Source: Escherichia coli (GTDB lineage Bacteria > Pseudomonadota > Gammaproteobacteria > Enterobacterales > Enterobacteriaceae). From it: a stretch of DNA of 7,711 nucleotides. The notes under the pieces are model-generated. The model had not been told where the DNA came from. It ran no database searches and was given only the letters and a program-made list of their open reading frames with translations. The position numbers and the translations under genes were made by a program. The stretch is taken from assembly GCF_003334255.1 (NCBI RefSeq), contig NZ_QOWU01000094.1; one strand, 5' to 3'. Positions 1,046 through 2,104 of the stretch are shown here, in pieces; the stretch's first letter is position 1; every line of letters begins with the position of its first letter.

Positions 1046-1219
1046 TCAGATTAAATTAATCTTGACATCATAGCTTTCAAGACCCGTCATTTTTTCCCGT
1101 GCGGTAAACTGAATACTGGTAACTTCTTTCCCGGTCTTTTTCTTAAGTTCAATAATTTTTTTTGTTATATATTCAGAAATATCTGCTTCTGCTTTTGTTT
1201 TTAAGTTTTCAATATTCAT
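1046..1219 (-). CDS. gnsB: GnsB (Gns family; multicopy suppressor of secG/fabA phenotypes), 57 aa
   Basis: Below the ORF-track cutoff, found by manual translation of the minus strand: MNIENLKTKAEADISEYITKKIIELKKKTGKEVTSIQFTAREKMTGLESYDVKINLI. Strong SD AAGAGGA upstream. Tandem ATGs at 1222 and 1219. Stop TGA at 1046. Confidence 0.8.
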   Translation of the reverse strand: MNIENLKTKAEADISEYITKKIIELKKKTGKEVTSIQFTAREKMTGLESYDVKINLI

Positions 1220-1390
1220 CATTTCCTCTTTTAGTCTGTTATGACTTTCCAGTTACACAGTAAGTCGATTATATGGTGCAAACGTGTAAAAGATAAGATG
1301 AAACATCGCAATAATCAACATACGATAGTCTAAATTTTACACAAACAGACAAAGAGAATTTTCCTGAATTATCAATGCAATAGCATCAAA

Positions 1391-1546
1391 TCAACTCAAG
1401 AGCCTTATTGCTGCTTCCAGAATTTCTTCTGAAGTAACATGTCGATCCGCGGCTACATAAATGACTTTATGATCTCCGGTCAGAGATGGAAACCCTGCGG
1501 CCATTACAGTAAGGTGTGTTTTTTCGCCATTTGGATATTCACGCAT
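1391..1546 (-). CDS. ynfN: Small prophage protein YnfN, 51 aa
   Basis: Track ORF is 1391..1582, but its first codon at 1582 is GTG. ATG at 1546 gives MREYPNGEKTHLTVMAAGFPSLTGDHKVIYVAADRHVTSEEILEAAIRLLS (51 aa), matching recalled YnfN. GGAG lies 11 nt upstream. Confidence 0.6.
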   Translation of the reverse strand: MREYPNGEKTHLTVMAAGFPSLTGDHKVIYVAADRHVTSEEILEAAIRLLS

Positions 1547-1664
1547 GATGGTGTTAACTCCAGTCATCGCTGGCACTACCACTGCTGGTTCAGAGTTAAA
1601 AAAACTATGATTTTTTTCATGATGTTACCGTAGTATGTGAGTATCCATCGAATAGACACCAAGC

Positions 1665-1684
1665 AAAAAAGCTCCCGAAGGAGC
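1665..1684 (-). terminator. Rho-independent terminator, probably ending the cspI transcript
   Basis: Plus strand AAAAAA-GCTCC-CGAA-GGAGC. On the minus strand the hairpin is followed by TTTTTT. It lies about 200 nt downstream of the cspI stop. Confidence 0.6.
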
Positions 1685-1891
1685 CTTCATTTTCACTTTT
1701 TTAAATCCAACGACAGACGGCTGGCATTTAAGTATTGTGAAATATTATCAAATGTAATCATCATTGATTTACAAAAGATACATTTTGCCCCGAAAGGATT
1801 CATGTCAGAAACATCAAAAGATGATGTTCTATACTGGGAACCATGACAACACGGGCATCTAAAGTGAATATGGTTTGTAATATTGTCTACC

Positions 1892-2104
1892 TCAAAGCGC
1901 CACTACATGAACAGCGGCAGGACCTTTAGGTCCGTTCTCAATACCAAATTCAACTTCCTGATTCTCAGTTAATGTTTTGAAATCGTTGCTCTGAATTGCT
2001 GAGAAATGGACAAACACATCTTTGCTGCCATCTTTCGGCGTGATGAAACCAAAACCTTTTTCAGGGTTAAACCATTTCACTAAACCAGTCATTTTGTTAG
2101 ACAT
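1892..2104 (-). CDS. cspI: Cold shock protein CspI (CspA family), 70 aa
   Basis: 70-aa [41 protein letters not shown]... with RNP1/RNP2 cold-shock-domain motifs. ATG at 2104 with AAGG upstream. Long 5' leader typical of the cspA family. Confidence 0.9.

Follow-up and report, generated by a model that had tools for sequence, protein, structure and literature searches.

The closest described relatives of the locus analyzed here are the chromosomal cold-shock locus cspG-ymcF-ymcE-gnsA of Escherichia coli, the cspA thermosensor family (Rfam RF01766), and the cargo genes, or morons, of lambdoid phages. Such morons include bor of lambda and Min27 in the slot between Rz and cos, stx in the slot between Q and S, and those of HK97-type phages. 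A lysogen transcriptome of the AIEC strain LF82 led to the report of CspI, CspB, and 'YnfN' as morons of the prophage Tritos, which is among the five spontaneously induced prophages of that strain (Misson et al. 2023, PMC9928086). In this context, we examined a 7,711-nt stretch of E. coli DNA (assembly GCF_003334255.1, contig NZ_QOWU01000094.1), referred to in full as the window.

Comparison with E. coli K-12 showed that positions 900-2470 of the window are 100% identical to the Qin prophage, and for the matching K-12 stretch RefSeq lists five island ORFs, cspI, ynfQ, ynfR, ynfN, and gnsB, all on the minus strand. The initial annotation of this stretch had described three small genes on the lysis strand. 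It located cspI, ynfN, and gnsB correctly but missed ynfQ (1693..1881) and ynfR (1625..1690). It was right to place the island between Rz and cos, as rzpQ lies upstream and, in MG1655, a cosN identical to that of lambda (GGGCGGCGACCT) lies ~200 bp past ynfO. The functional unit is wider than positions 1046..2104, extending from the cspI promoter (~2284) to the gnsB terminator (995). The features of the locus, ordered along the lysis strand, are as follows.

2467..2964 (-): rzpQ, the Rz spanin gene with embedded rzoQ (RefSeq annotation and ORFs); upstream boundary of the island
2256..2284 (-): predicted cspI promoter core, with -35 TTGCTA (2284..2279), a 17-nt spacer, and TG-extended -10 GTTAAT (2261..2256)
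2105..2249 (-): cspI 5' leader of ~145 nt, a cspA-type thermoregulator with a cold-box-like element
1892..2104 (-): cspI, encoding a 70-aa CspA-family cold-shock protein (RefSeq; NCBIfam CspG/CspA/CspE, E 1e-40 to 1e-36)
1693..1881 (-): ynfQ, with an ATT start, encoding a 62-aa YmcF-like CxxC...CxxC protein (RefSeq 'cold shock small protein YmcF')
1663..1686 (-): intrinsic terminator of the cspI-ynfQ transcript, GGCUCC-UUCG-GGAGCU followed by U6
1625..1690 (-): ynfR, a lineage-specific 21-aa ORF across the terminator (RefSeq annotation)
1391..1620 (-): ynfN, labeled 'frameshifted' by PGAP in K-12; the 51-aa K-12 YnfN corresponds to 1391..1546 (listed ORF, 1391..1582)
1290..1318 (-): candidate conserved gnsB promoter (prediction), with TTGATT (1318..1313), a 17-nt spacer, and TATCTT (1295..1290)
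1268..1273 (-): TATAAT, an alternative, lineage-specific candidate -10 for gnsB, just downstream of the preceding block
1046..1219 (-): gnsB, encoding a 57-aa GnsA/GnsB family protein (RefSeq; listed ORF, 1046..1222)
995..1019 (-): intrinsic terminator of the gnsB transcript (terminator scan)
484..894 (+): ydfO, cos-proximal, at the downstream boundary (RefSeq annotation)
193..426 (+): ynfO, cos-proximal, at the downstream boundary (RefSeq; NCBIfam YlcI/YnfO)

The composition and surroundings of the island differed from those of the lysis genes. GC content was 31-39% over 1000..2400, compared with 46-50% in R/Rz/S and 47-53% in Q/ydfU. The ynfO/ydfO segment (193..894) was variable, being present, absent, or replaced across IMG/VR loci and phages. 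As had been proposed, the window holds three cold-shock domain genes, namely cspI, cspB (4776..4991, -), and cspF (5292..5504, +); by annotation, Qin holds ydfK in addition to cspB and cspF. Two further matches were set aside. An Rfam Trp_leader match at 4469..4553 scored 21.7 bits, below the gathering score of 41, and was judged a mere terminator hairpin, and a reading of the island as a defense system was rejected, as PADLOC matched only the generic cold-shock domain model in CspI.

The predicted cspI promoter resembles those of other cold-shock genes. ATGCGTTAAT and TTGCT are invariant among the regions upstream of cspI, cspB, and cspG, and divergent phage loci match the cspI promoter core at 86-93% identity but the sequence upstream of the core at 44-54%. 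The transcription start site is predicted at ~2249. A consensus promoter scan of the window picked up neither this promoter nor either gnsB candidate; the scanner missed the cspI promoter because its -10 carries T at position 2. We note that the scan returned 2 sites, compared with 6.8 in shuffles, and was uninformative here. The cspI leader matched RF01766 at 1865..2250 (-) (112.8 bits, E 5e-29; gathering score 78), and this match above the gathering score supports the cold-box leader that the initial annotation had assigned to the gene. The leader length of 145 nt combines the start of the Rfam model at 2250 with a length reportedly given by Wang and colleagues in 1999. In divergent relatives the leader is 85-88% identical, above the 81-84% of the cspI coding sequence, and both the promoter core and the 5' UTR are thus better conserved than the coding sequence. 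Published K-12 Term-seq data place a 3' end within the leader, at window position 2211. The CspI translation contains a single cold-shock domain with RNP1 (KGFGFITP) and RNP2 (VFVHFSAI) motifs, and cspI had a dN/dS of 0.04. Judging by its family, CspI would act as an RNA chaperone made mainly after temperature downshift; cold induction of cspI is said to have been described by Wang and colleagues in 1999.

The ATT start of ynfQ lies 10 nt past the cspI stop, and residues 1-62 of YnfQ match Pfam PF23641 (E 1.8e-32); the protein is likely Zn-ribbon-like. Divergent loci and more distant relatives keep both the ATT start and the ORF, ynfQ dN/dS was 0.08-0.18, and in every lineage examined YmcF-like genes have a conserved ATT start 10-13 nt after the csp stop. 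The terminator that follows ynfQ folds into a hairpin of -14.9 kcal/mol (z -3.0) that is preserved by compensatory changes in divergent loci (GGCTCC/GGAGCC, GGCCCC/GGGGCC), and a Term-seq 3' end at U00096.3 1638226, equivalent to window position 1663, falls on it. The short ORF ynfR spans this terminator, and its SPA-tagged product is cold-induced (PMC6001520). We considered ynfR as a conserved gene and rejected this reading, as divergent loci lack its ATG and a premature stop interrupts it in phage 2H10.

ynfN begins just past the terminator, and its expression tracks that of cspI in two transcriptomes. In published data, the responses of cspI, ynfQ, and ynfN to AZT and SspA run parallel (6.5-, 5.9-, and 5.8-fold), and the three genes also move together in long-term stationary phase. 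The intact gene encodes 76 aa, as does phrog_3425. Alignment with Tritos and 2H10 showed that K-12 has lost one base, with T7 at ~1597..1603 where the phages have T8, and K-12 ynfN is thereby a frameshifted remnant of the 76-aa gene. ynfN had a dN/dS of 0.10-0.12. A fold search with the AF2 model of YnfN (pLDDT 89.5) gave no informative match. YnfN, like YnfQ, is conserved. The initial annotation had proposed separate expression signals for each gene. This agrees with the autonomous expression of cspI and gnsB, but no signals belonging to ynfN itself were found at the locus.

The annotated gnsB ATG at 1219 is preceded at 5 nt by the Shine-Dalgarno sequence AAGAGG, as first noted, and in divergent loci the sole gnsB ATG aligns with 1219, not 1222. 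GnsB residues 1-54 match Pfam PF08178 (E 3.4e-35), the protein matches GnsA in the PDB (4XO1/4XO2, E 5e-20), and gnsB dN/dS was 0.06-0.07. The function of GnsB is known from overexpression phenotypes only, and gnsB on a plasmid restores growth to relA fadR mutants. By family, abundant GnsB would be expected to raise unsaturated fatty acid content; lipid phenotypes of gnsB were reportedly published by Sugai in 2001.

Two candidate gnsB promoters lie in the 172-nt spacer between ynfN and gnsB. The TTGATT-N17-TATCTT block is 69-76% identical in divergent relatives, compared with 26-31% for its flanks, with both hexamers and their spacing conserved and the spacer sequence variable. The TATAAT at 1273..1268, which had been proposed as the gnsB -10, is present and is shared by the K-12 and 2H10 lineages. 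However, the divergent group lacks it and shows a 17-nt indel at this place, and the stretch around the motif is only 27-29% conserved in divergent relatives. Its -35 is poor (3/6), and TATAAT occurs 4 times in the window against 5.5 expected, which is not above chance; the conserved TTGATT-N17-TATCTT lies upstream of it. The gnsB terminator folds at -11.1 kcal/mol (z -2.6), and a strong Term-seq 3' end at U00096.3 1637558, equivalent to window position 995, was present in all three growth conditions.

Expression data from the LF82/Tritos lysogen distinguish the island from the lysis genes. Since gene labels differ between tables of that RNA-seq data set, we assigned genes by coordinates and length; by coordinates, the highly expressed 'YnfN' of PMC9928086 (LF82_0907, 174 bp) is gnsB. 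RNAs of cspI and gnsB were ~50-300 times as abundant as that of Rz. Raw counts of cspI were ~1000-3000 in four out of five conditions and 122-490 in LB culture, and were 10-30 times those of ynfN. For gnsB, raw counts were ~400-7600, with 54-70 in LB, exceeding Rz by more than 100-fold and the adjoining upstream ynfN by 15- to 80-fold. Counts for Rz (2-38) and the endolysin (0-20) were low, and the island is thus expressed in lysogens while Rz is silent or near background. Term-seq and transcriptome data from K-12 are in agreement with such expression. RNA levels and 3' ends together suggest that gnsB is transcribed autonomously, although stability or processing of its RNA, instead of a promoter, may account for part of its higher level. 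In the literature examined, which included Kim 2012 and Ettwiller 2016, we found no mapped 5' ends of cspI or gnsB, and we found no cold induction of gnsB, ynfQ, or ynfN in the datasets examined.

The cassette is widespread beyond Qin. Intact copies occur in 80 IMG/VR loci and ~40% of complete E. coli genomes, and the viable phages Tritos and 2H10 carry it as well. Wherever flanks allow, the order Rrr-Rz-cspI-ynfQ-ynfN-gnsB-(variable)-terminase is found in 80/80 IMG/VR loci, and the same cassette order occurs in seven phage records, including Tritos and 2H10. The endolysin is common to 344 phage records, of which only seven carry the island, and PhiR55_1 and Min27 have other cargo between Rz and the terminase. 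The comparison of Rz-to-cos intervals that had been suggested as a check thus reveals variable cargo among phages that share an endolysin. Features typical of morons were found here, including presence and absence among phages, terminators of its own, expression in an uninduced prophage, and distinct GC content. With regard to promoters, a conserved core of the cspA/B/G type stands ahead of the Rfam-matched leader at cspI, and gnsB has two candidates; all of these promoters are predicted. The interpretation of the block as phage moron cargo in the Rz-to-cos slot, with cold-shock and membrane-lipid genes transcribed apart from the late operon, therefore holds, supported by the GC drop, the other cargo in relatives, the LF82 RNA, and the Term-seq ends.

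The initial annotation had further suggested that these functions were selected on a defective prophage, and our results do not support this. Across cspI, ynfQ, ynfN, and gnsB, dN/dS was 0.04-0.18, indicating purifying selection, and the cassette is kept in viable phages and in all 80 IMG/VR loci. Its presence there and in ~40% of E. coli genomes indicates that it was neither assembled nor selected on a defective prophage. The cassette predates the decay of Qin, which inherited it.

Together, these results very probably reflect a conserved lambdoid cargo cassette between Rz and cos, made up of two units that are transcribed autonomously on the lysis strand, and belonging to a lineage that would include Qin, Tritos, 2H10/Glaedevirus, and mEp460-like lambdoid phages. 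The first unit would run from the cspA/B/G-type promoter (~2284..2256) through a 145-nt thermosensing leader into cspI and ynfQ, and would end at the hairpin-U6 terminator with a 3' end at 1663. ynfN would be expressed at a ~10-30x lower level, presumably by read-through of this terminator. The second unit would comprise gnsB, transcribed from a promoter inside the 172-nt spacer to its own terminator (3' end 995), apparently strongly at 37 C. Gene content, paralogy, conservation, purifying selection, 3' ends, and lysogen expression come from this analysis or the cited data, whereas the start sites, read-through as the mechanism, cold regulation beyond cspI and YnfR, and an advantage for either phage or host are inferred.

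Several other readings of the locus can be weighed against this one. Transcription of the island solely as the end of the late operon, the outcome named at the outset as one that would overturn the moron interpretation, might be expected from the island's position adjoining Rz and on the same strand, but it is already contradicted by RNA-seq and Term-seq and we give it almost no credence. In LF82, cspI and gnsB counts are far above those of Rz and the endolysin; strong 3' ends at 995 and 1663 occur in K-12, whose Qin is not phage-inducible; and the leader of cspI fits the cspA thermoregulator model. A related reading, which we consider unlikely, is that the cassette mainly serves the phage. 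Q-antiterminated transcription from pR' would continue via S-R-Rz and the island to cos, supplying an RNA chaperone and a membrane-fluidity factor for lytic growth at low temperature. Q-modified polymerase passes intrinsic terminators, as known from lambda biology; every island gene lies on the late-operon strand directly past Rz; and the purifying selection on the cassette occurs in viable phages. However, the island genes carry terminators and a conserved predicted promoter of their own and are highly expressed in uninduced lysogens with Rz near background, and we found no phage yield data at low temperature. This phage-serving role and the cargo cassette of two transcription units are compatible and not mutually exclusive.

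The remaining readings concern the relationships among the genes. It is possible, but rather doubtful, that cspI, ynfN, and gnsB are three independent morons with their own promoters, the TATAAT at 1273..1268 being the gnsB -10, kept by selection for host cold adaptation on a defective prophage. The named genes and motifs are present, cspI and gnsB are autonomously expressed, the K-12 and 2H10 lineages both conserve the TATAAT, Qin holds cspB, cspF, and ydfK too, and a cspI knockout is outcompeted in long-term stationary phase. Nonetheless, ynfN follows cspI expression and lacks detectable signals, and its frameshift decay in K-12 speaks against selection on it there. The TATAAT motif is at chance frequency in a stretch that is only 27-29% conserved, an identical cassette is under purifying selection across a lineage of viable phages, and this reading leaves out two more ORFs, ynfQ and ynfR. 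Far less probable is an addiction module that would stabilize the prophage, in which gnsB would be paired with an upstream ynfN antidote by analogy with GnsA/YmcE. This idea draws on the Pfam/NCBI family names 'GnsA/GnsB toxin' and 'addiction module toxin', on the 76-aa gene ahead of gns at both loci, and on the listing of ymcE-gnsA as a type II toxin-antitoxin pair, which cites Wei et al. 2015. YnfN has no similarity to YmcE, though, and the locus contains no YmcE homologue; a 172-nt gap and separate transcription set ynfN apart from gnsB, with gnsB RNA at 15-80 times the ynfN level; gnsB is intact and strongly transcribed in K-12 despite the frameshifted ynfN; plasmid-borne gnsB rescues growth and does not kill; and a PADLOC search gave no match other than the generic one for CspI. 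We rejected the type II reading on these grounds; an adjacent, co-transcribed YmcE-like antitoxin was not found, and the toxin label for gnsB is poorly supported at this locus.

The cargo cassette of two units could be extended by a speculative circuit that we regard as quite improbable. The csp gene and the YmcF-like gene with its invariant AUU start, the deeply conserved core, together with the covarying terminator, might form an undescribed regulated cold-shock unit, with the AUU start making YnfQ/YmcF synthesis dependent on IF3; the infC gene likewise has an AUU start and a synthesis that depends on IF3 status. Csp protein translated from this mRNA might then antiterminate the hairpin, so that downstream cargo, which would be ynfN in the phage and ymcE-gnsA in the chromosome, would be on only in the cold. 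If this were true, the phage would carry a self-contained, temperature-gated acclimation circuit and not unrelated morons, and proof of such a switch would be a small added mechanism for cold-shock biology. The cassette is ordinary and already known, and the locus has little discovery value: all genes are annotated in K-12, and cspI (1999), gnsB (2001), and the Tritos morons (2023) are published. What changes is a tidier picture of a cassette of five ORFs and two transcripts that derives from viable phages, with K-12 ynfN as a frameshifted remnant.

Compared with known systems, the island is a paralogue of cspG-ymcF-ymcE-gnsA. The two share the order of a csp gene, a YmcF-like ATT gene 10 nt past the csp stop, a 76-aa gene, and a gns gene, with DNA identity of 74.5% over cspI and ynfQ and 73.2% over gnsB including its Shine-Dalgarno sequence, and the cspG promoter core ATGCGTTAAT is identical to that of cspI. 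In contrast, the middle genes, membrane protein YmcE and phage YnfN, have no similarity. The chromosomal ymcF, ymcE, and gnsA overlap in an operon-like arrangement, whereas in the phage copy, which lies in a mobile element, ynfQ is followed by a terminator and gnsB is preceded by a 172-nt spacer that holds a predicted promoter for it. Relative to the RF01766 thermosensor, cspI is alike in its leader of ~145-160 nt plus the start of the coding sequence, its cold-box-like element, and its predicted cspA/B/G-type promoter; within the window its leader scored below that of cspB (112.8 compared with 158.8 bits), carries 13 inserted nt in the cold-box region, and lacks the 3' terminator of the family because ynfQ directly follows.

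Like other lambdoid morons, the island occupies a slot between Rz and cos/terminase, has its own terminators, predicted promoters, GC below that of its neighbors, and expression in a repressed prophage, and varies between homologous flanks. It differs in being multi-gene with two transcription units, as opposed to a single gene, and in carrying cold-shock and lipid physiology as opposed to serum resistance or a toxin. The island of the Tritos prophage in LF82 is 99.7% identical to the window, with an intact T8 ynfN and with ybcV/ybcW in place of ydfO/ynfO.

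The Rz-to-cos block of the Qin prophage (cspI-ynfQ-ynfR-ynfN-gnsB) is a real, conserved cassette that is expressed in lysogens and bounded by working terminators. All of its essentials are already annotated or published, so the island itself is already known. In sequence comparison, positions 900 to 2470 match E. coli K-12 strains at 100% identity, and they occur at no less than 90% identity in 2153 of 5426 complete E. coli genomes; RefSeq annotation places the K-12 copy within Qin. The initial annotation, which described a moron island of three small genes (cspI, ynfN and gnsB), was correct but incomplete. 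Open reading frames (ORFs) and RefSeq annotation place these genes where it had put them, and its count of three cold-shock (CSD) paralogues (cspI, cspB and cspF) holds. However, it missed two annotated ORFs between cspI and ynfN, and it located ynfN without recognizing a frameshifted remnant in K-12.

Genes in the window (193 to 2964 from RefSeq)
193–426, plus strand: ynfO
484–894, plus strand: ydfO
1046–1219, minus strand: gnsB
1391–1620, minus strand: ynfN, flagged "frameshifted"
1625–1690, minus strand: ynfR
1693–1881, minus strand: ynfQ, YmcF-like "cold shock small protein"
1892–2104, minus strand: cspI
2467–2964, minus strand: rzpQ
4776–4991, minus strand: cspB, past rzpQ and the lysis genes
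5292–5504, plus strand: cspF, past the lysis genes and cspB, followed by Q

The Rz-to-cos placement is also right. In the MG1655 sequence (L001; window position = L001 coordinate − 5101), the 12-nt cosN GGGCGGCGACCT lies at 5083..5094, ~200 bp past ynfO and 189 nt before nohA, or 7–18 nt left of the would-be window start. The 12-mer is identical to that of lambda, and we take its flanks to be lambda's as well. The window opens with an IS1 end in reverse complement (1..77; junction 77/78), with an inverted repeat that is presumably that of IS1. Since MG1655 runs on toward cos at the equivalent point without IS1, the window stems from a K-12-like genome in which the element was inserted between ynfO and cos, rather than from MG1655; ET734 is the one strain among complete E. 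coli genomes with IS1 adjoining ynfO here. Elsewhere in the window, an Rfam "Trp_leader" hit at 4469..4553 was rejected as sub-threshold (21.7 bits, gathering score 41); it is no more than a hairpin, AAACCCGC...GCGGGTTT, and its U-run, past the end of ynfU (4191..4412). Term-seq 3' ends occur at 4497 (plus strand) and, very strongly, at 4661 (minus strand, downstream of cspB).

The initial annotation proposed comparing the Rz-to-cos interval across related prophages, and this comparison revealed a conserved cassette in one lineage and other cargo in PhiR55_1 and Min27. Seven phage records contain the entire island, among them Tritos, a viable prophage of E. coli strain LF82 (99.7%), and the viable Glaedevirus phage 2H10 (91%), both of which carry it at the extreme right genome end, immediately before cos. 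A search of IMG/VR with GnsB gave 80 loci, ordered, wherever flanks allow, as endolysin, Rz, cspI, ynfQ, ynfN, gnsB, a variable ydfO/ynfO segment and the terminase small subunit. In a divergent group of these loci (CspI 88–93%, YnfQ 71–74%, YnfN 73–80% and GnsB 81–84% identical), the four genes and their spacing are unchanged, and the dN/dS of each gene lies within 0.04–0.18; synonymous sites are nearly saturated. The endolysin is common to 344 phage records. PhiR55_1 and Min27 have other genes, such as bor, between Rz and terminase, and phages of this kind hold a methylase or stx in the Q-S slot, compared with cspB/cspF in Qin. GC content is 31–39% in the island versus 46–50% in the lysis genes. 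Given the conserved cassette, the other cargo at the same slot and the AT-richness, the island occupies a classical moron slot as cargo and is a property of a phage lineage. The moron reading was therefore largely right, but selection on a defective prophage was not, as the cassette was neither acquired nor assembled by the defective Qin.

CspI is a typical CspA-family protein of 70 aa. The proposed cold-box leader is supported by a match to the Rfam cspA thermoregulator at 1865..2250 (minus strand; 112.8 bits, gathering score 78); cspB scores 158.8 bits with the same model. The upstream regions of cspI, cspB and cspG have TTGCT...ATGCGTTAAT in common, and the transcript start is predicted near 2249, in agreement with the Rfam model boundary.

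Predicted cspI promoter elements
2284–2279, minus strand: −35 TTGCTA, in the motif common to cspI, cspB and cspG
2261–2256, minus strand: TG-extended −10 GTTAAT, 17-nt spacer from the −35

Identity between K-12 and divergent loci
Upstream of the cspI −35: 44–54%
cspI promoter core: 86–93%
cspI 5' leader: 85–88%
cspI coding sequence: 81–84%
ynfN stop to 1319, upstream of the candidate gnsB −35: 26–31%
1318–1290, minus strand, candidate gnsB promoter TTGATT-N17-TATCTT: 69–76%
Block with TATAAT at 1273..1268: 27–29%

The cspI leader is thus conserved more than its coding sequence. Published MG1655 Term-seq places a 3' end at 2211 within the leader, ~39 nt past the predicted start and inside a second TATAAT hexamer (2213..2208, minus strand); transcription may pause or end early at the cold-box region, or the RNA may be processed there. 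On the plus strand, a terminator-like hairpin (2397..2412) precedes a T-run (element 2397..2419), and low-level 3' ends at 2418/2419 in all three Term-seq conditions imply a transcript antisense to the cspI promoter/leader region. The equivalent region of phage 2H10 has an annotated small ORF on the plus strand.

The ynfQ gene starts with ATT (1879..1881, minus strand) 10 nt past the cspI stop and encodes a 62-aa CxxC...CxxC protein of the Pfam YmcF-like family (E 1.8e-32). Every lineage examined (including loci L004, L066–L084 and L087) keeps an ATT 10–13 nt past the csp stop, preceded by (A/G)AGG overlapping that stop. Conservation of this rare start codon, although synonymous sites are saturated, suggests that initiation of ynfQ/ymcF may be regulated. 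A hairpin with U6 follows ynfQ (−14.9 kcal/mol, z −3.0) and is maintained by compensatory substitutions in divergent loci. The published Term-seq data show an RNA 3' end at the end of its U-run (U00096.3 1638226, or 1663 in the window by a conversion resting on published ynfR coordinates), at 36,000 units in only one of the three conditions. Overlapping this terminator is the 21-aa ynfR, whose ATG is missing in divergent relatives and which has a premature stop in 2H10, so it is no conserved gene; its tagged product is nonetheless made and cold-induced in K-12 (PMC6001520).

YnfN had no family match in Pfam or NCBIfam. At ~1597..1603, Tritos and 2H10 have T8 compared with T7 in K-12; the T8 gene is intact, encoding 76 aa, and the "51-aa YnfN" of K-12 corresponds to the C-terminal two thirds of its product. 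The AlphaFold model of the 76-aa form is confident (pLDDT 89.5) and has a five-stranded sheet and a C-terminal helix. The 5' end of the gene (within 1590..1620) reads ATG AAA AAA ATC ATA GTT TTT TTT. T7 also occurs in one divergent locus (L066) and, among 21 near-identical IMG/VR loci, in 3. It either arose independently in each by recurrent homopolymer slippage or is a sequencing error in some assemblies. The gene begins 43 nt past the ynfQ terminator, and no promoter was found for it. In RNA-seq of the Tritos lysogen, ynfN RNA was 10–30 times below cspI RNA. In two other transcriptomes it followed cspI and ynfQ across growth phases, and in response to AZT (6.5-, 5.9- and 5.8-fold for cspI, ynfQ and ynfN) and in SspA dependence (38, 42 and 51). 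The lacking promoter, low level and parallel behavior lead us to infer terminator read-through as the route of ynfN expression.

GnsB is a PF08178 member that matches solved GnsA structures. Its ribosome binding site (AAGAGG) is present as proposed, 5 nt upstream of the ATG annotated as the start (1219), with which the single gnsB ATG of divergent relatives aligns, rather than with 1222. The claim that each gene has its own signals holds for this site and for the cspI leader, but ynfN lacks a detected promoter, and the TATAAT at 1273..1268 (minus strand), though present, is at chance level (4 in the window versus 5.5 expected) and poorly conserved: it is confined to the K-12 and 2H10 lineages, and in divergent loci a 17-nt indel breaks it up. 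The candidate TTGATT-N17-TATCTT keeps its hexamers and spacing, with a variable spacer sequence; either it or the TATAAT may serve gnsB. A strong 3' end at 995, the predicted gnsB terminator, appears in all three Term-seq conditions (177,000–311,000 units). In LF82 RNA-seq, raw counts for the 174-bp gene at 1610202..1610375, which is gnsB by length and spacing to cspI, were 15–80 times those of ynfN directly upstream, over 100 times the Rz counts and, in one condition, above cspI. Therefore, gnsB probably has a promoter of its own in the 172-nt ynfN-gnsB spacer, or at least an independently accumulating RNA. The moron table of PMC9928086 gives LF82_0907, at 27-fold above background, the name "YnfN"; its coordinates, length and spacing to cspI identify this gene as gnsB, whereas the 156-bp LF82_3578, labelled "cold-shock protein" in S4, is ynfN (LF82 1610202..1610702 is equivalent to 1046..1546). 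Labels there appear offset by one row between Table 1, S1 and S4.

Judging from the gene families, PcspI transcripts would be poorly productive at 37 °C, and after downshift the cspA-type leader would permit CspI synthesis, with ynfQ translated from the same mRNA. Part of the polymerases would continue through the terminator into ynfN, and GnsB would be produced constitutively. Wang et al. in 1999 reportedly found cspI to be cold-induced. The lysogen could plausibly benefit, because a cspI knockout is outcompeted in long-term stationary phase (published). The island is also part of the Q-antiterminated late transcript, so the phage might gain from it at low temperature. Abundant GnsB reportedly shifts fatty acids toward unsaturated forms and rescues cold-sensitive lipid/secretion mutants (Sugai et al. 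2001). Pfam and NCBI label GnsB an addiction-module toxin, following the GnsA/YmcE report, but such a role is a weak proposition at this locus: no YmcE homologue was found at the island, ynfN is transcribed separately at a far lower level, K-12 has a frameshifted ynfN beside an intact, strongly expressed gnsB, and plasmid-borne gnsB rescues growth (published).

The island has a chromosomal paralogue, cspG-ymcF-ymcE-gnsA, with 74.5% DNA identity over cspI and ynfQ and 73.2% between gnsB with its ribosome binding site and gnsA. The 10-nt csp-to-ymcF gap and the ATT start are alike in both, but the middle gene is swapped, as YnfN and YmcE have no similarity. Some distant relatives have a second YnfN-like paralogue upstream of csp (L087 2037..2279, 35% identical to YnfN; L089 725..952, 55%), and L087 has no gns gene within 3 kb downstream. 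More distant YnfN homologues (52–60% identical) follow csp and an ATT-initiated YmcF-like ORF with no gns nearby, which points to the csp-ymcF pair as the oldest unit.
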